DNA of 64,000 nucleotides from a virus. The number at the start of each line of letters is the position of its first letter. Within the stretch, counting starts at the first letter, position 1. The notes beneath the pieces were generated by a model. It was not told the DNA's origin, did no database searches, and saw nothing but the letters and a program-made list of their open reading frames with translations. Location: the IMG/VR virus record IMGVR_UViG_3300009314_000709, positions 1 through 64,000 of that record. One strand, 5' to 3'. This document shows, in pieces, positions 2,135 through 64,000 of this stretch. Made by a program: the position numbers and the translations under genes.

Positions 2135-2203
2135 TTGACTGGTTTTATCAGTAAATCTATAACGGCGGCTCGATGATTTGTTACCTTGCCACGAGGATTT
2201 CTC

Positions 2204-4501
2204 ATGTGTGGAATTGTAGGGTTTATTGGTGAGCCCTTAGACAGCCGATTGGCGTTTGAGTTGTCAACAAACCTATTGGCGAGAACTGAAATACGGGGCG
2301 ATGATGCTTCGGGGTATTGGGCTTGTGACACGTTGCCAGAAGATCAAGGGTGTGTTTACTGGACGAAGGCCCCCAAGAAAGCCAGCGACTTCGTTAAGGG
2401 CGACGGCTGGCAGGCGATCAAAGATATTAAGCTGAATCTTCTTATCTCACATTGTCGCCGATCTACAGTCCGAGGCAGCGAAAACAAGAACCGCAACAAC
2501 CATCCATTCCTAAGTAGCGATTCTCGCACAGCGCTTGTTCATAATGGTAACGTCCCCGAGTTTGATTCGCTTCGGAGCGACTATGATGTAATGAGCGAAT
2601 GCGACAGCGAGATTCTACTTCGTATGATGGAGCGTGGTCCTCATTACAATCTTGAATACCTGCGGCAACAACTTGGACGCCTCAAAGGCAGTGGCGAGAA
2701 AGCTATCAAAGATTGCCCGGATGAAGAAGTCCCATTGTGGAGCCACAGTCTTCTCGGACTCGTCGACATCTTTGCTCGAATCAATTACGGCGCAATGGCC
2801 GTAGCGATTGGAGAACGGTGGGAAGACGGAACACGAGCCCTCTGGTTATTCCGTGATCGAGAAAGGCCGCTACAAGTCATAGACATGCGGGAATCTCTCA
2901 ATCAGGTCTACGTTGTTTCCGAAAAGCGAATTTGGCGAGAAGCGGTCGAAGCGACACCAAACGCCAGACGGTACGTCAAAGGCTCGACTCCGATCATTGA
3001 ATTTCCGCCGATGTACATCTGGCTGCTGACCTACCGGGAGGGCGAGAAAAACAAGTTTGGCGTGAGGAAGTTCCGCATCAATCGCCAGCGCCGTCACGAT
3101 ACAACATTCGAGGAAGAGCGCCCAGACGATTTGGTTCAGCCAACAAACCGGGGGGCGATTCGTGTTGTCACAAATCTCAAGCACGACCACGAACAAGATC
3201 ACACAAATGGCGTCACGGCGCACGAACCGACCGCCTCCGACAGCACACCAGTAAAGAAGAGCGACGACAAAGGAAAGAAAACCGAGTCAAAAAAAAACGT
3301 AAGCGCCCCCTCACCGCCCACCCACACTTCTTCACCGGAGCCCGACGAGACCTCAAACCAGACGTATGAAGACTGGCCGGGGGAAGTCTACCCTTTTGTG
3401 AGCCGCTACCTGACTACCTTCTTTGAAATGCCGACCGCCGAAAGAAGCCGTCCGGCCATGAGTCAGGTGGTACAATTGCGAACCACCGCATATTCGCCCA
3501 GTCTTAGCATCCCTGATCCAAGCGACAAAGCGATTGTACTAGGCAATCCGCACTACCGAGACTGGGCTAATGCGCTCAAAGCCAAACATGGCTGGCATGA
3601 TCGAGTCCGCCAATCAGAGGGCGTAGCCAAGCGAGACATAATATCTCTCTGGGTCATCCTTAGAGAAGCCCGAGAAGCCTGGCAAGCTATGCCTAGTGAT
3701 GAGCCGGTCTCCGCCTTCACGAACAACCTAGCTCCCACAGATTGCTTCGAGCACATGATACGGTTGATCGACGCTCGTACCAAAGTGTCGCATAGACCGT
3801 GGCCAACGGGAATGACCGCTGGGCTAACGGATACCTTCAAAACACTGCAAGAGCAACTGACGGAAGCAGCGGTACGTCTTCGGGATCAGGATGAAGAATT
3901 TCCCGACATGACGAACTACGAGGCAGAACTTACGAAGGATCATTACCACCGGTGGGCCAAAGTTCTCCAGGCACGACATCAATGGAACGATGCGGCCTGG
4001 AGAAACGGTATCGATGTTAAGTTGTTCTTCTTACTCTCCGAAGTACACAACTCCTGGAGAGGGCATATGCGAACCGTGTATGCCGACGTTCCATTTGATG
4101 CCGATGATCCACCGAGCATGGCCTGTGAAGCTATTGGGGCTGCGAATGCTCAAGTACGAGTGCGGAAGCCGCCCTTTGAAGACGACGAGGAAGAAGACGA
4201 AGGCGAGAACGGAGATCACGAAGTAGAGCGTCCCCTAGGCGTGATAAGGACCGACAGAATGACTGTACACGAATCAGAACCAGGCCAACTCGACATGGAT
4301 AAAGTGGAAGAGTTCAATGACTCTCTCCACAAGTTACGAGAAATTCTTGCCGGGATTGATACCGGCGTAAACGAGTTGATCCGAGAAAAGACAATCAACA
4401 ACACCGAATTGCACGAGATTGTCGACAGCCTCAAGGATGCTGTGCAAGACATGGAAGGACTGAACATCATCGCCGAGAGCTACACGAAACAAGCAACTTA
4501 A
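2204..4501 (+). CDS. class II glutamine amidotransferase (Ntn) domain fused to a long unknown C-terminal region
   Basis: MCGIVG start gives N-terminal Cys; RGDDASG, SHCR, NNHPF, VHNG, SECDSE motifs. Confidence 0.88.
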   Translation: MCGIVGFIGEPLDSRLAFELSTNLLARTEIRGDDASGYWACDTLPEDQGCVYWTKAPKKASDFVKGDGWQAIKDIKLNLLISHCRRSTVRGSENKNRNNHPFLSSDSRTALVHNGNVPEFDSLRSDYDVMSECDSEILLRMMERGPHYNLEYLRQQLGRLKGSGEKAIKDCPDEEVPLWSHSLLGLVDIFARINYGAMAVAIGERWEDGTRALWLFRDRERPLQVIDMRESLNQVYVVSEKRIWREAVEATPNARRYVKGSTPIIEFPPMYIWLLTYREGEKNKFGVRKFRINRQRRHDTTFEEERPDDLVQPTNRGAIRVVTNLKHDHEQDHTNGVTAHEPTASDSTPVKKSDDKGKKTESKKNVSAPSPPTHTSSPEPDETSNQTYEDWPGEVYPFVSRYLTTFFEMPTAERSRPAMSQVVQLRTTAYSPSLSIPDPSDKAIVLGNPHYRDWANALKAKHGWHDRVRQSEGVAKRDIISLWVILREAREAWQAMPSDEPVSAFTNNLAPTDCFEHMIRLIDARTKVSHRPWPTGMTAGLTDTFKTLQEQLTEAAVRLRDQDEEFPDMTNYEAELTKDHYHRWAKVLQARHQWNDAAWRNGIDVKLFFLLSEVHNSWRGHMRTVYADVPFDADDPPSMACEAIGAANAQVRVRKPPFEDDEEEDEGENGDHEVERPLGVIRTDRMTVHESEPGQLDMDKVEEFNDSLHKLREILAGIDTGVNELIREKTINNTELHEIVDSLKDAVQDMEGLNIIAESYTKQAT

Positions 4502-4540: not shown

Positions 4541-5101
4541 ATGCCCGATGATGATTTCGCATATGAGGTTGACAACGTTCTCGCCGAGGCGGAAAAGCAA
4601 AAACGCTCAAAGAAAAAGAAGAACTCAGGTGACAAAGGCGACCGTGGCGAGCGGATGCTGTGCCAGGTTCTCAACAGGCATTTTGACACCAATGAATTCA
4701 CACGTGTTTTGGGTAGCGGCAACCGATGGAGCCAAGTTGAGTTTGTTAAGAAGGATTACATAGGTGATGTCGTATGCCCGGACGATTTTAGGTTCGTTGT
4801 TGAATGTAAATTCGGGTACACCGACGAACTTGATCTGTACTCAGCTATAGCGAGCGGACATTACCTGCTCGACGAATGGACCAGCAAGGCCGAAGACTAT
4901 GCGGAACGATCTGGCCGTGATCCTATCATTTGTTGGAAACGTGAGTATCTTCCTTGGCTCGGTATCGTAAAGACAAGCGCCTTAGACCAAGAATTCGATT
5001 TCCAGTTTAAGTACAGAAATTGGACCAGCACGGCGCTAGACAACCTACTCGCACTAGGTAAGGAGTTCTTCTATGTCCGACAAGGCAAAGAGGATGGATG
5101 A
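4541..5101 (+). CDS. Holliday junction resolvase-like PD-(D/E)XK nuclease
   Basis: NS..KG.RGER, F.RV.GSG, GDVVCP, VECKFG motifs. Confidence 0.8.
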   Translation: MPDDDFAYEVDNVLAEAEKQKRSKKKKNSGDKGDRGERMLCQVLNRHFDTNEFTRVLGSGNRWSQVEFVKKDYIGDVVCPDDFRFVVECKFGYTDELDLYSAIASGHYLLDEWTSKAEDYAERSGRDPIICWKREYLPWLGIVKTSALDQEFDFQFKYRNWTSTALDNLLALGKEFFYVRQGKEDG

Positions 5102-5393: not shown

Positions 5394-5520
5394 TACATAG
5401 TGTGGGAGAAAATACCGTGGGGTCGCTGACTCCGGCCCTGAAGACTAATGCCCAATGCGGTTGAGGGTACTCCCAGCCCGTCGTTTCCAACACGGCGGAC
5501 AACCCCAAGGAGAGTTTAGA
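5394..5520 (+). promoter_or_regulatory. TACATA promoter-like motif followed by a structured 5' leader
   Basis: TGGGAG..TACC/GGTACTCCCA, GGGGTC/GGCCCT and CCGTCGT/ACGGCGG inverted repeats before SD AAGGAGAG. Confidence 0.45.
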
Positions 5521-6372
5521 ATGCCTTACTCGCAACGTTTTGTCGCCTCCGTCGTCGTTGACGGACAGGTTCAGAAAGAGAGCCCTGATGGCTCGGTCGA
5601 AATTCCTTTCGGCTCCGAGTACACCCTTCGTTTCCGCAACAAGCACCGTAACCGTCGTGCCGTTGTAAAGCTCTGGATTGACGGTGAGGAGCAATCCATA
5701 GGTGGGTACGTGATCCCGCCTAGCTCGTTCAAAGATATCGAGCGGAATAGCCACTCACCGCACAGGTTCAAGCTGGTTAATCCCCACTCCGCTGACGCCC
5801 AGGCGCACGGTAAGGATGAACACAACGTCGAAGGTTACAACGGCGTTGTGGAAGCAAGGTTCTACCTCGAAAAAGAACAGCCGCAGGAAGTCCACCATCA
5901 CCACCATCACCACCATGACCACTACCATCCCGTGCCACGACCACCACGGCGTCCGCCGTGGCAACCGTACCCCTACGAGACTTTCTCGTTGGATGCGAAG
6001 AGGGACTCGGGAGGGCCACGTGGACAAAGCGCCGGTGGTGAACAGGAGATGAGGACATGCTCTACAAACGCAGCCGACTACGACGAGGCTGAGTGCGCAC
6101 CCGAATTTCTATCGATGGGTGCCACCGAAGCGGAAGCAGCGCCAAAGAGAGCCAGCGCTAAGCGGGCCATGCGGCGTAGCACTGTCGCCGGTGTGACTGT
6201 TGAAGGGAGCAGGTCGAGCCAAACCTTCCGCAAGGTGGATATTGATCTGGAAGAACAATTCACACCCATCAAGTTGATCTTGAAGGGTTATCACGCCGGT
6301 CCCACGGAAGTGGACGAAGTGGAAGTGCTAGACGACGCCGACGTGGTCGAGGCCACTTCAAAAAAAGCCTAA
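5521..6372 (+). CDS. hypothetical protein with His-rich insert; -1 frameshift would extend it to 6485 with a zinc ribbon
   Basis: IPFGSEY.LR..N....RA.V...IDG motif; poly-His tract; ends TCA AAA AAA GCC TAA. Confidence 0.8.
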   Translation: MPYSQRFVASVVVDGQVQKESPDGSVEIPFGSEYTLRFRNKHRNRRAVVKLWIDGEEQSIGGYVIPPSSFKDIERNSHSPHRFKLVNPHSADAQAHGKDEHNVEGYNGVVEARFYLEKEQPQEVHHHHHHHHDHYHPVPRPPRRPPWQPYPYETFSLDAKRDSGGPRGQSAGGEQEMRTCSTNAADYDEAECAPEFLSMGATEAEAAPKRASAKRAMRRSTVAGVTVEGSRSSQTFRKVDIDLEEQFTPIKLILKGYHAGPTEVDEVEVLDDADVVEATSKKA

Positions 6373-6404
6373 CGGCGACTGCTAGGCCAACGTCCGCAGT
6401 CGCC
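6360..6404 (+). other. candidate -1 programmed ribosomal frameshift signal
   Basis: A_AAA_AAA (6360-6366), 7-nt spacer, perfect 9-bp stem GGCGACTGC/GCAGTCGCC; -1 frame encodes CSNCG...CHVCG to TAG 6485. Confidence 0.7.
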
Positions 6405-6501
6405 ACAAGCTACTGCTCGAACTGTGGTGCAAAGAGGAAGCCCCCAGGGGCGAAATATTGCCATGTCTGCGGTCACAAGTACTAGAGGTGGTTTACCACA
6501 A

Positions 6502-6543
6502 GAAACCCCGCCCCGGCCGTTGGCCGGGGCGGGGTTTCGCTTT
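6502..6543 (+). terminator. intrinsic terminator
   Basis: GAAACCCCGCCCCGGCC/GGCCGGGGCGGGGTTTC hairpin followed by T-rich tail. Confidence 0.8.
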
Positions 6544-6559
6544 ATGAAAAGGTAGCACG

Positions 6560-7045
6560 ATGCCTAAGTCCTTCGCTCTCGCCCTGAATCACCACATGGT
6601 TGGACAACTCGCTGGCCCTGGTGACTTTCCTTTACCGGCCACGCCGAAACCGATAGACCTCTCTTTGATCGAGTTTGAGCGTGAACCTCGCAACGGAGAG
6701 AAAACATTCATTGAAGGCTTCTGGTTTGATGCTACTTGGTATGATTTGCTCTCCCAAGCGTCCACCGAAGCGCAAATGCGAGAAGTCGCTCGCCACATGT
6801 CCCTAGAGCAGCTATCGCATGACTTTGCTACAGTTAGTTACCAAGACGATGTATCCACGATAAGCCAGGCTACTCGCAACACGGTTATCAAGGTCGTCGA
6901 GGAAGAGTTAACGGGCCGAAAATCTACATCCCAGCTTCCACCTCGTGGGTTACTCGATCCAGATTACGTGCCGCCAACCAAACGCCAAAGGTCAAACGAA
7001 GCGCCCGAACCCGAGATCACGACAGAAAGAGACATCATCCTTTAA
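6560..7045 (+). CDS. hypothetical protein
   Basis: 161-aa ORF, AAAGG upstream. Confidence 0.7.
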   Translation: MPKSFALALNHHMVGQLAGPGDFPLPATPKPIDLSLIEFEREPRNGEKTFIEGFWFDATWYDLLSQASTEAQMREVARHMSLEQLSHDFATVSYQDDVSTISQATRNTVIKVVEEELTGRKSTSQLPPRGLLDPDYVPPTKRQRSNEAPEPEITTERDIIL

Positions 7046-7103: not shown

Positions 7104-7688
7104 TCAAGCCTTTTGTGGCATCAAGCTCTTATCTCCATGTTTCGCCATAATCTTTCTGTAACCTGCACGAGTCATCCGTTCTCCAGCATCTGTCATTTGA
7201 CCAATCTGCATTTTTCCTGACAGGAATCTGGGATCGTTTTCCATAAACATGACTAGCAAATCAGACCCAATTCCCAGTTTCTGGTATGGTCGCTCGACCC
7301 AAACTCCAATCGTACCGAATTCGTTGCTCGTAAAACCAACGGGCTCCTCATTGACAAAGGCAACGATTGTCTGATCGTGCGTAGGAAGTCCGCTGTTTCG
7401 GATTTCCTCATCTGTCATATCAACAACTAACCCTCGTGCGTCTCGTTTGATATCTCCATTAACGTCGTGAGCAACATACGCATTCTTTTTACCAGACTGC
7501 CGGAACTCTACCATATGCGGCCCGTACTCTTTAGAGGAAAGCAAGACAGGATATTTCGATTTGGGGCCTAGCCAAGACAATCCCCCAGGTTCCTCATATC
7601 GCTCGTAAGATGAGGCGGGAATCCATCCAGTTTTATGGTGTTGCAGAAACTCGTCTTCGGTGGTTTCTAGCCATCGCTTGAAGTTCAT
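7104..7688 (-). CDS. GNAT acetyltransferase with capsid-targeting-like N-terminus
   Basis: VWVERPYQKLGIGSDLL acetyl-CoA motif A; starts MNFKRWLE. Confidence 0.75.
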   Translation of the reverse strand: MNFKRWLETTEDEFLQHHKTGWIPASSYERYEEPGGLSWLGPKSKYPVLLSSKEYGPHMVEFRQSGKKNAYVAHDVNGDIKRDARGLVVDMTDEEIRNSGLPTHDQTIVAFVNEEPVGFTSNEFGTIGVWVERPYQKLGIGSDLLVMFMENDPRFLSGKMQIGQMTDAGERMTRAGYRKIMAKHGDKSLMPQKA

Positions 7689-8465: not shown

Positions 8466-8636
8466 CTAGTTATTCTTATTCAGTTCCTTATGTTCCTTCT
8501 CACGCTGCTCTACGAACTGGTCGATAAAAAACCGACGTTCGATTGGACTGAGCGTTAGCTTTATGACATTGATCGGTTGTCTCAAGTGGTAGGCGATGAA
8601 GAACATTTCTTCCCACAACCACTTGTTGTATGTCAT
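8466..8636 (-). CDS. gp51-like baseplate/tail assembly chaperone (56 aa, not in ORF track)
   Basis: manual translation MTYNKWLWEEMFFIAYHLRQPINVIKLTLSPIERRFFIDQFVEQREKEHKELNKNN; ATGA overlap with upstream gene. Confidence 0.75.
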   Translation of the reverse strand: MTYNKWLWEEMFFIAYHLRQPINVIKLTLSPIERRFFIDQFVEQREKEHKELNKNN

Positions 8637-9898
8637 AGCGGCTCGATCTCTGTCCTTTCCTTGGGGAAGAAAAAATTGGCTTCGTACGGAAGTTCAACAG
8701 GGAACTCCGCCCCACAAGCTGGACAAGGCACAATCAATTCTGTATCTACGCCAAATGGTGGATTATTTAGCGTGTTGCGAATGTAGTTAATGTCCGCAAC
8801 CGGTAGTCGCTCCATCAATGACTGAATGGCATGTCGGTTGTTCACCTTAGCGTTGTCATTGCCAATCTCATCAATAAGGATGGACGCCTTGTACAAGAAG
8901 GAGTCATCTGTAGCGTTAGAGAACTTCGTTTTTCGGTCCCGGTACGCTGAGATTTCAGTTTCGTGAGCGCCTGTCATCAGATGATACCTGAACGTAAACC
9001 TTGTCTTGGGCAACGTCTTGGCCAGGGTATCTTCGTGGAAGTTATCTGGGCAGTAATCTACCGGCAAGTTCAGATCAATATCATGGTCGAATGTGTGGCC
9101 ACATTCTGGACACTTGACGGTCACTTCATAGACGTTGCCGTACGAAATACCACGCAAGTAAATCAACAGGTACGTCCGATCCACGCTCAGTAGCTTTTCT
9201 GGGTTGATATCTTTCTCCATCAAGCAATTGCGGAAAATCATTTCAATACCACGTCCTTGCCGCATCAACCGAGCGGTTGAAAGAATCGTCTCTTCCTGGC
9301 CTGTCATGGGGCGAACATGGACTTCGCCGCTCATCGGTTGATCTTCGTCATGGTAAAAACGGCCTCTCGATGGAAGTGGTACCCTTTCGTAATTCTGGGT
9401 ATTCAACGCAGTGAGCAAGGCGTTAAGATGCGGATCATTCGTCATCAACTCACCAGGCTGCAATGGTTTCATGTTGCTCTGCTGATGCGGAGGCAACTGT
9501 TGCGGTGTTTGAAATGGGGCATTGGAATTAGGCTGTGATTGCGCCTGCGGCCCACCTTGCTCTTCTACTTGGGAGGCGTTTACTTCAGATAGGCGTTGTT
9601 GCAGCATTTGCTGCATACCAGGTGGCATTTGGCCCGTCACCGAAATACCATCCATTGGCCGAGGCTCCGCCTGGGTCGCTACAGGATCATCTGGCACGCT
9701 TACACCAGCTTGACGCTGCGTTTCCAAAACATCATTCAGCGATGCGGTAGGTTGTTGGGCTGCTAACTTTGCTTTATCTACGGACTCGGGAGCCGGTGCA
9801 GCTTCCGATGCCTCTGCTTCACCCGTGATCTCTGATGGATCAATCTTTACTTTCTTCTTCGATTCTTGACGGAAGGTCTTGTCTTTCTCGTCTGCCAT
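8633..9898 (-). CDS. T4 gp26-like baseplate hub assembly protein with low-complexity N-terminus
   Basis: LPSRG.FY, VRPMT..EE.IL, DR.YLLI.LR..SYG, CPECG and CPACG motifs, FFFP end. Confidence 0.85.
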   Translation of the reverse strand: MADEKDKTFRQESKKKVKIDPSEITGEAEASEAAPAPESVDKAKLAAQQPTASLNDVLETQRQAGVSVPDDPVATQAEPRPMDGISVTGQMPPGMQQMLQQRLSEVNASQVEEQGGPQAQSQPNSNAPFQTPQQLPPHQQSNMKPLQPGELMTNDPHLNALLTALNTQNYERVPLPSRGRFYHDEDQPMSGEVHVRPMTGQEETILSTARLMRQGRGIEMIFRNCLMEKDINPEKLLSVDRTYLLIYLRGISYGNVYEVTVKCPECGHTFDHDIDLNLPVDYCPDNFHEDTLAKTLPKTRFTFRYHLMTGAHETEISAYRDRKTKFSNATDDSFLYKASILIDEIGNDNAKVNNRHAIQSLMERLPVADINYIRNTLNNPPFGVDTELIVPCPACGAEFPVELPYEANFFFPKERTEIEPL

Positions 9899-17411: not shown

Positions 17412-17533
17412 TTTCACATAATAGACTGAAATTCCGACAAGATTTGACAAAAAAAATGACTTTGCTGCACACATACACTAGATGGGGTTTTCTGCTTCAA
17501 TTTCAACAGCGGCTTTCTAGTATAAGGGTGGCT

Positions 17534-25902: not shown

Positions 25903-26562
25903 ATGCCACTACGAAGAAAAGACGGTAGCCTTTATCGTTTACGAGGGCCAAACAAGCTCTTGTTGCAACAAAACTTCTGGCACGATGATGAACCTATTCG
26001 GGTTCTCAACTTCAATCAGCTTGCGAAAGCGATCATTGATATCGATGCGCCGAAAAGGATTCCTGTTAAAAAAGAGGAAGCCCCAACAACGAAAGAAGGG
26101 ATCGACCGTATTATTGATTCAATAGACGAAATATCGAGTGTCGTGTTGGAAGAACCGGAGATAAAGCCACCGAAACCGAAACCGAAACCAGAGCCAAAAA
26201 AAGAACCAGAGGCGGCAACCAACGAACCCATTGTTCCGAGCAGCTTCCGTCAGTTAGATCGTCAATTATTGTACTGCCTGCCAGCAAAAGTAACGAAGTA
26301 TAAAGATGAACTGTACGGAGACGAAATAGTCAGATTAGAATACGAAGACCCATTCCGGTTCCAAGGCACGATTGCATCTTCTTCTGACACCAACATAGTC
26401 TATTGGACAACTGTTCCGCATGTAACCGAACGATCCATTATCTACCATTCTTCTCGGTATCGATGGTGGAAAGTTGATAAGGTCTTGCCTGATCCTATGG
26501 GAGATGGAACTGTTTTGCGGTGCATTCCATCTGATTTGAAACCCGATTTCAGCCACTCTTAG
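25903..26562 (+). CDS. putative head-completion protein, N-terminus similar to 24881-25420
   Basis: MPLRRKDGSLYRLRG vs MALYNKDGTVYKLTG; DELYGDE motif. Confidence 0.55.
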   Translation: MPLRRKDGSLYRLRGPNKLLLQQNFWHDDEPIRVLNFNQLAKAIIDIDAPKRIPVKKEEAPTTKEGIDRIIDSIDEISSVVLEEPEIKPPKPKPKPEPKKEPEAATNEPIVPSSFRQLDRQLLYCLPAKVTKYKDELYGDEIVRLEYEDPFRFQGTIASSSDTNIVYWTTVPHVTERSIIYHSSRYRWWKVDKVLPDPMGDGTVLRCIPSDLKPDFSHS

Positions 26563-56702: not shown

Positions 56703-57986
56703 ATGCTAACGGCGAATAGAATACACGAGTTCCTGGACAAATACACCATCGTTGAAGGTTTGCCAATCATCTTAGACCCTGAGCGATCCAATGGAGTTTG
56801 GGTCGTGGATATGATTACTGGCAAGAAATACCTTGATTGCACTAGTTTGTTTGGTACTGCGCCAGTCGGTTTCAATCATCACATCATGTTCCGGGAATCA
56901 CAAGAGTGCTTTGTGGGCGTGCCGCATCTCAAGATACCACACGGAGAAGTCTATACGTGTTGGTATGCAGATTTCATTGAAGCCTTCCTCAAAAAAGCCC
57001 TGCCGGATTACTTCAAGTACGTCGTTTGCTGCCCGAGCACGGACGAGGCCATAGACGCCAGCCTTAAAATTGCTTTCGACTGGAAGGCTAAGAAGCTAGG
57101 GATGGGGGATGGCTTTGCCCAATCATTCGATGTGATCCATTTCGCAGAGTCCTACCACGGTTCCTCTGTCTATGCTCTAAGTGCTAGTGATACCACTGTT
57201 CGGAGCAATCACTGCTACCCTCGTTTCAATTGGACGATGGTTCCCAATCCTAAAGTCAGGTTTCCCAGCACATCTCAAGTTGAAACCAACGAAACACATG
57301 CCCTGATTGCTATGAAAAAGGCGATTCACAAAGGGAACGTTGCCGCAATTCTCATGGAGCCGCTGCAAGACAAAGGGGGGAACAATCTATTTAGAGAAGG
57401 GTTCTTGAAGCAAGTACGAGACCTAGCAAGCGAATCCAACACACTACTAATCTTCAATGAATGTAATGTGGGATTCGGGCCATCTGGCAAATGGTGGTGC
57501 CACCAAACATTTGATATACGACCTGACTTAATGGTTTTCGGCGGCCGGACACAAGTCGCAGGTGTGGTGGCGACAGAAAAACTCGACGAAGTAAAGAGAC
57601 ATTGTTTCAATCACGAGCGCAATCGCCTTGAAACAAAGTGGGGGGGCGACTTGGCGGATATGGTGAGATGCGAAATCTACATGCAAATCATCGAAAAAGA
57701 AGACCTGCTCAAGCAGGCGAAAAAGATTGGTGAATACATGCTGGCGAAGCTAAGGGAACTCGAAGCAGTGTCAGCTAAGATTAGCAACACACGAGGTATC
57801 GGTACGTTGACTGCCTTCGATCTACCCAATTCTATGTCGAGAAACTTGGTCCTCTCATACCTGCAAAAACACATGTTAATTAGGGGCTGCGGTTTGCAGT
57901 CCATTTGCTTCCGACCGCCACTAATTTTTGGCAAGGAAGAAGCTGATCTTACTATGGATTATATCAGAAAGGCATTGATACTATGA
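56703..57986 (+). CDS. L-lysine 6-transaminase-like class III aminotransferase lacking PLP-site residues
   Basis: G..YLD, GFNH, A.KIAFDWK, P.F.W....P, ILMEPLQ..GG, TWGG-like; NECNVG and FGGRTQV replace DEVQTG and FGKKTQV. Confidence 0.8.
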   Translation: MLTANRIHEFLDKYTIVEGLPIILDPERSNGVWVVDMITGKKYLDCTSLFGTAPVGFNHHIMFRESQECFVGVPHLKIPHGEVYTCWYADFIEAFLKKALPDYFKYVVCCPSTDEAIDASLKIAFDWKAKKLGMGDGFAQSFDVIHFAESYHGSSVYALSASDTTVRSNHCYPRFNWTMVPNPKVRFPSTSQVETNETHALIAMKKAIHKGNVAAILMEPLQDKGGNNLFREGFLKQVRDLASESNTLLIFNECNVGFGPSGKWWCHQTFDIRPDLMVFGGRTQVAGVVATEKLDEVKRHCFNHERNRLETKWGGDLADMVRCEIYMQIIEKEDLLKQAKKIGEYMLAKLRELEAVSAKISNTRGIGTLTAFDLPNSMSRNLVLSYLQKHMLIRGCGLQSICFRPPLIFGKEEADLTMDYIRKALIL

Positions 57987-62117: not shown

Positions 62118-64000
62118 ATGGCGGAGATAGCTTTTTTTGCAGACGCAATCACCGATGAAAATGGGTTGCTGCCCATTTATGAGCATCTTGACTACACTTT
62201 TGATGGTGTGCAACCAGTCTCAGCAGGCGATCTCAAATCCTGCTCGCCCGAACTTGTCATTACAAATCAAGCCACATCTCTGTTAGAACTCACGAGCAAG
62301 TTCCCTGTTGTTTTCTTCTTAACAGAGCCAACGGGTTATCCTCTATTACAACCAGGCTTGTCGGTTCGACGCATCTTTCTCAATCCTCTTCGTATGCTAG
62401 AAGCGATGTTTGTGTTTTCATCTTTCGCAGCCAAGGAAATCGAGAGTGCTTATCGGATCAAGCCTATTGTTCAACTACCGATCATAAGACACGCACGGCA
62501 ACGACAACAAGGCAACAAGATTGTTCACTCTTATGTTCCGGGAAGTATTCAACAGGAGTTAACGAGGTGGAGATTTGTTCCCTACGAAAAACCATCTGAC
62601 TTCGAGGGAGCAGCACTTTATGTTGATATGACGAGTACATACGAGTGCGTAAATAGCCGCCTTTGTGTTGCAGCCGCACATGGTGTGCCTTGCGTGACGG
62701 CCGACAAGGGCTCCAATCCCGAATTGGCTAGCGGCGGTGATGTTCTCGTACCATTACACGTATCGGAAAGTAAGTGGTTAGAGGCGATTAAGGTAGGTTT
62801 GCGAGATAGACAGACCAATGGGGACAAGAACAAAAAGGCTAGCATGAGGTTTCAGAATATGGGAGACATTGACAAGCGAATTGAACGACTCACAAAACGT
62901 AAACGGGGCACATCCCTATTGCCAAAAATCGCCGCAAGACTTCAGGAAAGAAAAGCATTAGAGAAGATTGAAAAACTTAACAAGGAAAGGGCCAAGCGGA
63001 AGCCAGGTAGCTCCGTGAAAACGAAAGGACCGGTTATGGGACGAAGGGAAACGCTTGCTGAAAGAGAGCGACGAGCAAGGCGAAAACTAGAGAAGGTGCG
63101 ATCTAGGAGGAAAGAAGAGCATGGCGGGAAACCAACTTATCAAATCGTTGATACCCCATCGTGGTTTACAAACACAAAGTCCTGCGATGTATCAATCATC
63201 GTGCCAATGTACCGAAGTCGAGTGCACATCGAAAGACAAATCAGGGAGTGGGATATTCAAGATGACGGGCTTACTAAAGAAGTTATCTACGTAGACGACC
63301 TGTGTCCTCAGTACAGCGCTGAAGTCATCTTGCCTACCTGGGAAATCCACCGACAACACCTTAAAGGCAAACCGGTAGGCAAAATAATCTGCTCTCATAC
63401 GAACCGGGGATATGGACCTAACTGCAACCTTGGAGCCAAACATGCATTGGGTAGGTATCTAATCTTTCTCAATGCCGACGTTTTTGTGTTGCAGAACTGG
63501 GTCAAGCCGATGTTTGACTTGTGCGAAAACGATCCGCAAATCGGCATCGTAGGTAACATGCAGTTAGCTACTCGTGGCGAAGGAAACGTAATTGATTCTG
63601 CTGGTTCAGAATGGCATTGGACAGGCGGGCATTTTGAACACATTGGGCGCACTAGCTTTCAGACTAAACGCCTTCCTCAGCCCATGCGACTTACCACAGC
63701 CCCAAAGGAACTCAAAGTCCCCGCCGAGCGGGAAATGGTTACTGGCTGCTGCTTTATGATCCCTCGGAAAGTCTTTGACGAAATTGGCGGTTACGATGAG
63801 ATGTACAAAATCGGCTACTGGGAAGACAGCGATATGAACATGGCCGTCCGTGAAAAGGGCTACAAGATATACTTTCAACCCGAATCTAAAGTATTGCATG
63901 TTGGTGGCCACGCCAAAGCAGGCAGCCACTCTTACATGAAGCAGAATAGAAGGCGATTCTTTTTCCGTTGGGTTGATACAGGGTTCGTAGACAAAGTTGC
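62118..64000 (+). CDS. glycosyltransferase fusion (degenerate GT-B N-half, basic linker, GT2 C-half); truncated by window end, absent from ORF track
   Basis: manual translation from ATG 62118 shows no stop: AAAHGVPCVT.D.G.NPE; VSIIVPMY, YVDD, NRGYG..CN.GA, FLNAD, VTGCC, GYWEDSD. Confidence 0.85.
   Translation, partial: MAEIAFFADAITDENGLLPIYEHLDYTFDGVQPVSAGDLKSCSPELVITNQATSLLELTSKFPVVFFLTEPTGYPLLQPGLSVRRIFLNPLRMLEAMFVFSSFAAKEIESAYRIKPIVQLPIIRHARQRQQGNKIVHSYVPGSIQQELTRWRFVPYEKPSDFEGAALYVDMTSTYECVNSRLCVAAAHGVPCVTADKGSNPELASGGDVLVPLHVSESKWLEAIKVGLRDRQTNGDKNKKASMRFQNMGDIDKRIERLTKRKRGTSLLPKIAARLQERKALEKIEKLNKERAKRKPGSSVKTKGPVMGRRETLAERERRARRKLEKVRSRRKEEHGGKPTYQIVDTPSWFTNTKSCDVSIIVPMYRSRVHIERQIREWDIQDDGLTKEVIYVDDLCPQYSAEVILPTWEIHRQHLKGKPVGKIICSHTNRGYGPNCNLGAKHALGRYLIFLNADVFVLQNWVKPMFDLCENDPQIGIVGNMQLATRGEGNVIDSAGSEWHWTGGHFEHIGRTSFQTKRLPQPMRLTTAPKELKVPAEREMVTGCCFMIPRKVFDEIGGYDEMYKIGYWEDSDMNMAVREKGYKIYFQPESKVLHVGGHAKAGSHSYMKQNRRRFFFRWVDTGFVDKV

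Follow-up and report, generated by a model that had tools for sequence, protein, structure and literature searches.

Does a phage gene that stops right after a pair of lysine codons also give rise to a longer protein, ending in a zinc ribbon that is encoded one frame back just downstream? This question is raised by the gene P0001 (positions 5521 to 6372, plus strand; 283 amino acids, aa) in a stretch of 64,000 nucleotides (nt; hereafter, the window, meaning the whole stretch of DNA that was analysed), which is part of a 72,432-nt virus record of IMG/VR (IMGVR_UViG_3300009314_000709). The original prediction for this locus was that -1 recoding equips the gene product with a Cys4 zinc ribbon, giving two isoforms. 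Our analysis points to a credible conserved recoding site, as judged from sequence comparisons, and a programmed slip of the ribosome is the most likely means by which part of the protein acquires the zinc-ribbon tail. That is, we consider it moderately probable that a conserved programmed -1 ribosomal frameshift near the end of the gene yields both the 283-aa form and a ribbon-bearing form of 321 aa.

The 0 frame closes with TCA (6358-6360), AAA (6361-6363), AAA (6364-6366), GCC and TAA (6370-6372), so that the protein ends ...TSKKA, and the slippery heptamer A_AAA_AAA (6360-6366, plus strand; seen in the sequence and in one Logan contig) sits in the X_XXY_YYZ register of this frame, with K281 and K282 as its 0-frame codons. 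A 7-nt spacer, GCCTAAC (6367-6373, plus strand), which contains the 0-frame stop, separates the heptamer from a hairpin with a 13-nt loop (6374-6404, plus strand), a candidate frameshift stimulator whose stem arms, GGCGACTGC (6374-6382) and GCAGTCGCC (6396-6404), form a perfect inverted repeat of 9 bp, with seven G-C and two A-U pairs. Both the heptamer at the gene end and the perfect, GC-rich stem 7 nt after it are thus found as the original prediction described them. A 66-nt stretch at this place is predicted to fold at -22.2 kcal/mol, compared with -13.25 +/- 2.41 kcal/mol for shuffled versions (z -3.71; 0 of 200 shuffles as good), and a 45-nt segment that begins 5 nt past the heptamer folds at -20.0 kcal/mol, a stability reached by 0.39% of the 2559 segments across the 64 kb. 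When all 232 heptamers on both strands are ranked by the stability of their downstream folds, the one at 6360 comes 6th-7th, and those with more stable folds look like terminator hairpins. Folding hence predicts a stable RNA structure 5-9 nt past the heptamer, as in known frameshift cassettes. The A run itself is unremarkable in number, as runs of at least seven A occur 6 times in the 64 kb vs. 4.3 expected (i.e., no excess over chance). A GAGG lies 7 nt before the heptamer, compared with 10 nt for the Shine-Dalgarno-like element upstream of the dnaX heptamer, and might conceivably play a similar role here. Overall, the layout is that of an extending-type bacterial -1 frameshift site: a heptamer, a 7-nt spacer, a strong stem, an early 0-frame stop, a -1 open reading frame (ORF) with no start of its own, and a terminator after the -1 stop. 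We also considered a minus-strand, terminator-like hairpin (6388 to 6366, with the complement of A7 as its tail) as the reason for the A run, and rejected it because two G-T pairs are required in its stem, a plus-strand gene lies between it and the nearest minus-strand gene (end at 7104), and the terminator scan gave 5 such sites vs. 1.6 +/- 1.2 in shuffles.

Past the A7 run, only 2 codons precede a stop in the 0 frame and 6 in the +1 frame, whereas the -1 frame runs on for 39 codons without a stop and is likewise free of stops for 38 codons upstream. This extension (6366-6485, plus strand), which translates from 6366 to SLTATARPTSAVATSYCSNCGAKRKPPGAKYCHVCGHKY and ends at TAG 6483-6485, consists of a Thr/Ala/Ser-rich linker followed by a Cys4 zinc ribbon, CSNCGAKRKPPGAKYCHVCGHKY (6414-6482, plus strand), with two CxxC pairs (CSNC...CHVC). 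The ribbon assignment draws on Pfam, homology and third-position divergence: Pfam PF13240 (Zn_Ribbon_1) matches the -1 peptide at 27.2 bits (curated gathering cut-off 25; E 3.3e-6), and the peptide is identical to the in-frame C-terminus of the homologue P0009 at 24 of 37 residues (E 2e-15). The predicted structure of another in-frame homologue, P0008, has its ribbon at 85-89 of the predicted local distance difference test (pLDDT), behind a linker below 50. Downstream lies an intrinsic terminator (about 6503-6543, plus strand; based on sequence, fold and, in part, the terminator scan), with a GC-rich stem of ~16 bp and the loop GTT, followed by TTTCGCTTT. Its stem starts ~17 nt past the -1 stop, i.e., the terminator is positioned after the -1 stop and not after the 0-frame stop, in agreement with the earlier statement that the -1 frame stops just before a terminator. 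No ATG, GTG or TTG exists in the -1 frame from 6246 to 6485, and we rejected independent initiation or reinitiation of the ribbon ORF for this reason. A search for small proteins (32-104 aa) resembling the -1 ORF gave 3 candidates, none at E<=10.

To assess selection on the ribbon, its 25 codons in the window were compared, codon by codon, with the in-frame ribbons of three IMG/VR relatives (L011, L012 and L013). Synonymous changes numbered 12, 10 and 9, respectively, vs. 6 non-synonymous changes in each case, and the differences at codon positions 1/2/3 were 4/3/15, 5/4/13 and 5/2/13. Ribbon identity was 19-20 of 25 residues, compared with 52-56% for the whole proteins P0005, P0008 and P0009 against P0001. 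In a neutral simulation that required an open frame, the four Cys and at least 19/25 identity, survival was 1.2% at 20% change per site and 0.014% at 30%. These comparisons indicate that the out-of-frame ribbon is under purifying selection in the -1 frame and is a real, selected part of the family. The -1 ORF of the window is, in short, coding by homology and selection while lacking its own initiation.

The homologous protein search gave 163 matches, and what follows covers the 120 listed. Among their C-terminal tails, 24 carry an in-frame CxxC...CxxC ribbon, 83 a coiled-coil pattern of the type DDLEAENEELRRKLAELENEKLK (84 by pattern, minus the wrongly caught P0007), six end in Lys-Lys followed within a few residues by a stop (hereafter, KK-stop) and seven end otherwise. 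The KK-stop proteins are P0001 itself and P0002, P0003, P0004, P0007 and P0010, and the latter five are the closest homologues among the matches listed (49-63% identical to P0001). Their ends read ...SKKA, ...EKKKSDA, ...EKKK, ...SKKK and ...EKKN; P0003 shares its last four residues and its stop position with the window protein, and all five stop in the alignment columns where the ribbon of P0005, P0006, P0008, P0009 and P0011 begins. At 90% identity, every KK-stop protein clusters alone, and the six together are found on 10 contigs from JGI, Logan and ENA. An in-frame version in which the ribbon follows the Lys-Lys was found in none of the close relatives among the 120 listed matches; Lys-Lys occurs within 30 residues upstream of an in-frame ribbon in 2 of the 24 ribbon proteins (P0081 and P0091), both of them distant and neither with Lys-Lys at the junction. 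The closest homologues hence do not have the ribbon in frame, which is the arrangement that the original prediction had set against itself. In a maximum-likelihood tree of 39 sequences (P0001 to P0040 without P0013; terminal branches of 0.07-1.0 changes per site), the in-frame pair P0005/P0006 groups with the six KK-stop proteins in a clade of eight (support 96/90), as a trichotomy. Because the truncation falls at the same Lys-Lys position in all five of the closest homologues, the out-of-frame arrangement appears to be old, of the age of a clade with members down to 49% identity to P0001, and not a one-off error; the preservation of the window's ribbon is therefore hard to explain without translation.

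At the DNA level, 41 locus entries fetched by protein similarity have the ribbon or the coiled coil in frame in all cases. These comprise a set of nine (four from IMG/VR and five JGI metagenome contigs) and a set of 32 from IMG/VR, four of which repeat the records of L001-L004; four of the 32 loci had no pattern match, and these have no ribbon in the other frames either. No relative was found among GTDB genome contigs, and a pattern scan of IMG/VR DNA (A7, with the ribbon motif 25-55 nt later) gave 25 loci and no out-of-frame family member. The scan did return members of a distant subfamily, L043, L046, L049 (at 1929-1935 or 2119-2125) and L052 (2136-2142), in which an A7 run (...ISQKN...) is in frame and located 32 codons from the stop and ~10 codons upstream of the in-frame ribbon. 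As a separate observation, the family exchanges its C-terminal module among lineages, with ribbon or coiled coil in the proteins listed here and SHOCT in structural neighbours from the Atlas and BFVD. The seven other tails are a mixed group: P0063, P0082, P0109 and P0118 are coiled-coil-like by eye, P0013 ends within the core, P0018 drops out of the coiled-coil frame past ...KRLDDL, a point at which its near-identical sibling P0017 continues, and P0106 ends past the first CxxC of the ribbon. The broken tails of P0018 and P0106 may represent errors, mutations or further recoding sites, and such sporadic frame breaks (P0018, perhaps P0106) occur at places other than the KK site.

Under the favoured reading of a programmed ribosomal frameshift, most ribosomes would read TCA AAA AAA GCC and terminate at TAA, producing the 283-aa form. 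A fraction would be paused by the 9-bp hairpin 7 nt downstream and slip back one base on A_AAA_AAA, where both lysine tRNAs could re-pair perfectly, and would then continue with AGC CTA ACG... for 39 codons, with the hairpin sequence itself coding for the Thr/Ala/Ser linker. The shifted product would be a protein of 321 aa that carries, by way of a flexible linker, a Cys4 zinc ribbon at its C-terminus, and this ribbon could be a tethering or self-association module that is made optional here, its counterpart in relatives being a constitutive ribbon, coiled coil or SHOCT. As for the two isoforms of the original prediction, the addition of a Cys4 ribbon by -1 recoding is supported by the in-frame ribbon of relatives, the purifying selection in the -1 frame, the missing start and the five closest homologues cut at Lys-Lys, and the slip is more probably ribosomal than transcriptional.

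Several points weigh against this reading. We infer the occurrence and rate of the slippage, and its ribosomal nature, from sequence, and the insertion of one A by RNA polymerase is an event that would yield the same product. In E. coli, according to an excerpt of PMC5009743, A_AAA_AAA induces shifting much less readily than A_AAA_AAG; the same excerpt notes that about half of bacteria have a single lysine tRNA. The truncated homologues are known as proteins, and their heptamer register, -1 ribbon and stem are deduced from the protein ends. The KK-stop label needs two changes on the maximum-likelihood tree, and the KK-stop proteins form a single group in 20% of bootstrap trees. Local structure also appears not to be unique to the frameshift arrangement, because the in-frame relative L011 is predicted to be structured before its ribbon as well (z -3.26), in a different shape; none of the four relatives folded has a comparable single stem in its pre-ribbon stretch. 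Finally, a single low-depth contig (2.7x), possibly from the window's own sample, spans the A7 run.

The last point bears on one of the alternatives, i.e., that A7 is an assembly or sequencing error, the true genome having A8 and the ribbon simply in frame. Homopolymers are classic error sites and the depth in the runs found is low (2.4-6.3x), but A7 was reproduced by a second assembler, in a Logan contig of run X1 (record 3; 464 nt, 6017-6480) with 0 differences and 0 gaps; this contig may derive from the source sample and thus checks the assembler rather than the biology. Matching contigs of runs X2, X3 and X5 do not reach the A7 run. The read support that the original prediction had called for is, accordingly, of this kind, and reads A7 and not A8. 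The exact 283-aa protein is also recorded on 4 contigs, and the truncation point is shared by the five diverged homologues, which come from three sources, with no close one in frame. Further, of the nine homopolymers of at least seven bases in the window, six others lie within long, uninterrupted ORFs (A9 at 3289, A8 at 17449, A7 at 26196 and 58056, T7 at 62132 and G7 at 57640); the run at 6360 is the only one where coding potential passes from one frame to another. We regard such an error as extremely improbable. If, instead, the run changes length during DNA replication, the population would mix ribbon-ON (A8) and ribbon-OFF (A7) genomes. Such phase variation would be in line with the mutability of homopolymers and with the near-identical P0002 and P0004, which differ right past the Lys run (KKKSDA* vs. 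KKK*) as an indel in the run could produce; nonetheless, no ON variant exists among the six distinct proteins on 10 contigs, and the one contig spanning A7 shows no other length, though contigs drop rare variants. Phase variation is very unlikely in our view. A fixed truncation, in which the clade lost the ribbon by a 1-nt deletion, the short protein is the sole product and the ribbon is an untranslated remnant, would account for the frameshift product not being observed, for gene callers reporting ribbon-less proteins in six distinct sequences and for the downstream ribbon being seen in the window DNA only. It would, however, leave the remnant as the best-conserved part of the protein (the 19-20/25 vs. 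52-56% mentioned above), with mostly third-position divergence, and 39 codons without a stop together with four retained Cys are not what neutrality would readily give at the clade's branch lengths of 0.3-1.0. The placement of the terminator after the ribbon, and the complete C-terminal module in 107 of the 120 listed members (24 ribbon, 83 coiled coil by pattern), also speak against it, and we judge a fixed truncation unlikely. If it were nevertheless correct, the locus would be a truncated gene with its remnant.

The most probable alternative to a ribosomal frameshift is transcriptional slippage, in which the polymerase adds one A at A7/T7 in some transcripts and the resulting A8 mRNA encodes the same 321-aa protein, the hairpin being uninvolved. 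The product of an A8 transcript would indeed be the identical ...KKSLTA... protein, the run is a pure homopolymer, and the Lys-Lys or Lys-Lys-Lys ends of the five close homologues fit variable A-runs as well as they fit heptamers. Slippage mediated by a stem-loop was reportedly described by Penno et al. in 2015. On the other hand, A7 is short for efficient slippage; the runs known to be utilised are mostly 9 or longer, or come with an upstream hairpin. Here, the predicted fold of the 42 nt upstream of the run does not stand out from shuffled versions (z -1.21), 23 of 200 being as good, and the strong hairpin is instead downstream, at a spacing typical of ribosomal stimulators. Moreover, the A9 and A8 runs inside other intact genes of the window would be costly if the polymerase slipped readily. 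These arguments are indirect, and we therefore view transcriptional slippage as possible but on balance improbable, with ribosomal frameshifting being favoured over it. As an aside, the A9 run (3289-3297) is in frame inside the 771-aa ORF of an amidotransferase-like protein and the A8 run (17449-17456) is within a second long ORF; either might give rise to transcriptional slippage or to truncated by-products.

Whether the hairpin and the terminator interact is a further question raised by the locus. The loop of the hairpin contains an octamer, GGCCAACG (6385-6392, plus strand), that is complementary to CGTTGGCC at 6518-6525, in the top of the terminator hairpin, as had been pointed out previously for the loop and this part of the terminator. 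The two segments are 126 nt apart, and when the 200 nt downstream are shuffled by mononucleotide, 282 of 20000 shuffles (1.4%) contain such an 8-nt complement, a value to be read with the post hoc nature of the observation in mind. The minimum-free-energy fold retains both local hairpins, i.e., the frameshift hairpin and the terminator. By an excerpt of PMC5009743, frameshifting in gene 10 of phage T7 depends, in an unexplained way, on terminator sequence more than 200 nt 3' of the site. The loop-terminator pairing is, because of this dependence in T7, a candidate worth a mutational test and at most that, with T7 gene 10 as a possible precedent for coupling between hairpin and terminator. A more elaborate scenario would be that the frameshift-stimulating hairpin also contacts the gene's own terminator through the 8-nt loop pairing, coupling the frameshift rate to terminator folding; that a constitutive ribbon was made optional in an uncultivated clade of large marine phages; that the frameshift was gained or lost more than once, since the in-frame P0005/P0006 are not separated from the frameshifted clade; and that the core is common to giant viruses and large DNA viruses of arthropods. 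In its entirety, we find this scenario quite unlikely.

The mechanism proposed here is already known, and the novelty lies in the gene family, in the extension being a zinc ribbon, in large uncultivated marine phages as the setting and in the contrast with sister lineages, whose ribbon is in frame. One of the closest parallels is gene 10A/10B of phage T7 (and T3), where a minority of ribosomes shift by -1 within the last few codons of the 0 frame, and the resulting short extension of the C-terminus stops just ahead of a terminator. The shift site of T7 is, however, of the G_GU type, as given in an excerpt of PMC5009743, compared with A_AAA_AAA here, and its gene 10 encodes the major capsid protein, whereas the present gene belongs to an unrelated family, its extension is a zinc ribbon and its link to the terminator consists of complementarity. 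E. coli dnaX and the orfAB genes of the IS3 family share with our site the Lys-Lys heptamer followed by a stable stem-loop a few nt on, and the IS3-type sites also share the extension of the protein into a -1 ORF, but the heptamer is A_AAA_AAG in those systems, relative to which the A_AAA_AAA found here is less shifty in E. coli (PMC5009743, in the part cited), and the shift in dnaX truncates the protein while the shift here would extend it. Gene G/GT of phage lambda is similar in being a conserved, low-level -1 shift in tailed phages that yields a pair of proteins, alike in their N-terminal part and made at a fixed ratio, with the -1 part adding a binding domain (as described in an excerpt of PMC5009743), and in its conservation across phages of little sequence similarity. 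Unlike G/GT, the present gene does not encode a tail chaperone (neither Pfam nor PHROG gives a match, and the gene lies beside nuclease-like and amidotransferase-like genes), and its extension is 39 aa.

Most annotated phage frameshifts are those of tail assembly chaperones; for instance, an excerpt of PMC10885494 counts 2397 tail chaperones among 2476 joined genes of SEA-PHAGES, the other 79 being hypothetical. Among the papers searched, we found none on programmed ribosomal frameshifting combined with bacteriophage and zinc ribbon, nor on DUF7918, and this case was not described in the titles and abstracts listed for frameshifting or recoding in huge or jumbo phages (supplements were not covered in either search). 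If the favoured reading holds, the locus would be a clean new case of frameshifting, in a gene family that is unrelated to the tail chaperones and widespread in large uncultivated phages. The sister lineages that carry the same ribbon in frame would serve as its evolutionary control, and gene callers would systematically report its short form only. The heptamer, hairpin, ribbon and terminator also make up a natural construct of ~180 nt that could be used to ask how A_AAA_AAA works outside E. coli and whether terminators modulate frameshifting.

Regarding the protein that would receive the ribbon, the AlphaFold2 model of P0001 (120 sequences; mean pLDDT 79.5, predicted template-modelling score 0.66) suggests a core made of one beta-sandwich, formed by residues 1-120 and 222-258, with a disordered His-rich insert in between. 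The tail past residue 260 is disordered in the model, an acidic linker leading to ...TSKKA. The insert opens, right after the last N-terminal strand, with eight His codons (H125-H132; 5893-5916, plus strand), of which H125-H129 are invariant or nearly so in the alignment, and the consensus of the 120 sequences reads HHHHHH; this conserved run hints at metal binding in the disordered insert. Searches by sequence gave little: Pfam has no family for the 0-frame product at E<=1, and none for P0008 at E<=0.01, including DUF7918; PHROGs returned nothing under E 0.02 for either the 0-frame or the extended product; and the best PDB sequence-profile match (E 0.098) falls on the His-rich/low-complexity part. 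A fold search of the PDB gave no match at E<=0.001, its weak top matches being Ig-like or RhoGDI-like sandwiches. The label 'non-structural', given to the gene in the original prediction, finds no support in these searches.

By contrast with the PDB, 32 viral models of BFVD match the core at E<=0.001, nearly all of them uncharacterised proteins, from giant viruses, a pithovirus, iridoviruses, nudiviruses and nimaviruses (Wsv390), with a few annotated only as RING-type domain-containing, and including a marine phage protein with a SHOCT domain. In particular, the core (5521-5880 plus 6184-6294) has Foldseek matches at E 1e-14 to 1e-4 in Marseillevirus, Pithovirus, iridoviruses, nudiviruses, white spot syndrome virus (Wsv390) and a granulovirus (P22.2). 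In the nearest viral clusters of the Atlas, Zn_Ribbon_1 is found on 28-75% of members. P0001 is thus similar to this viral beta-sandwich family in the core fold, which is common to many uncharacterised viral proteins, and in the C-terminal Zn_Ribbon_1, but neither P0001 nor P0008 has a Pfam match to DUF7918 (PF25534), and DUF7918 is linked solely as a structural neighbour in the Atlas (template-modelling score 0.48-0.49), with no sequence match. Because a ribbon, a coiled coil or SHOCT fills the post-core position in different lineages, we infer that the C-terminal module serves in self-association or tethering and would be sub-stoichiometric in this clade through frameshifting.

The start of the gene at ATG 5521 is supported by homologues that open with MPYSQRF or MAYSQRF at the same Met, and a Shine-Dalgarno-like AAGGAG (5507-5512, plus strand), read from the sequence, lies 8 nt upstream. 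In the wider locus, blastn of 5400-6600 found no similar DNA among GenBank phages, no tRNA genes were found in the 64-kb window, and Rfam gave nothing at gathering score on 6200-6600, its sub-threshold matches sitting on the terminator. The sequencing runs that contain the window sequence are labelled marine metagenome. In addition, a 254-nt contig of an RNA library labelled wetland metagenome (run X5) matches 5451-5705 at 95-99%, with 9 differences and 1 gap; it is by itself no sign of transcription, and on this sequence match a close relative of the gene therefore appears to be present in a library from another habitat. The source phage is probably very large, i.e., the window is probably a fragment of its genome, because CheckV gives a completeness of 14% for the 72,432-nt record and homologues of the gene are found on contigs of up to 693 kb. 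Upstream of P0001 lie the amidotransferase-like protein mentioned above (2186-4501, 771 aa) and a PDDEXK nuclease (4541-5101), and on the minus strand lies a T4-type baseplate hub with two CxxC pairs (8633-9898), so that the record joins a T4-type baseplate hub, a PDDEXK nuclease and a large amidotransferase-like protein.

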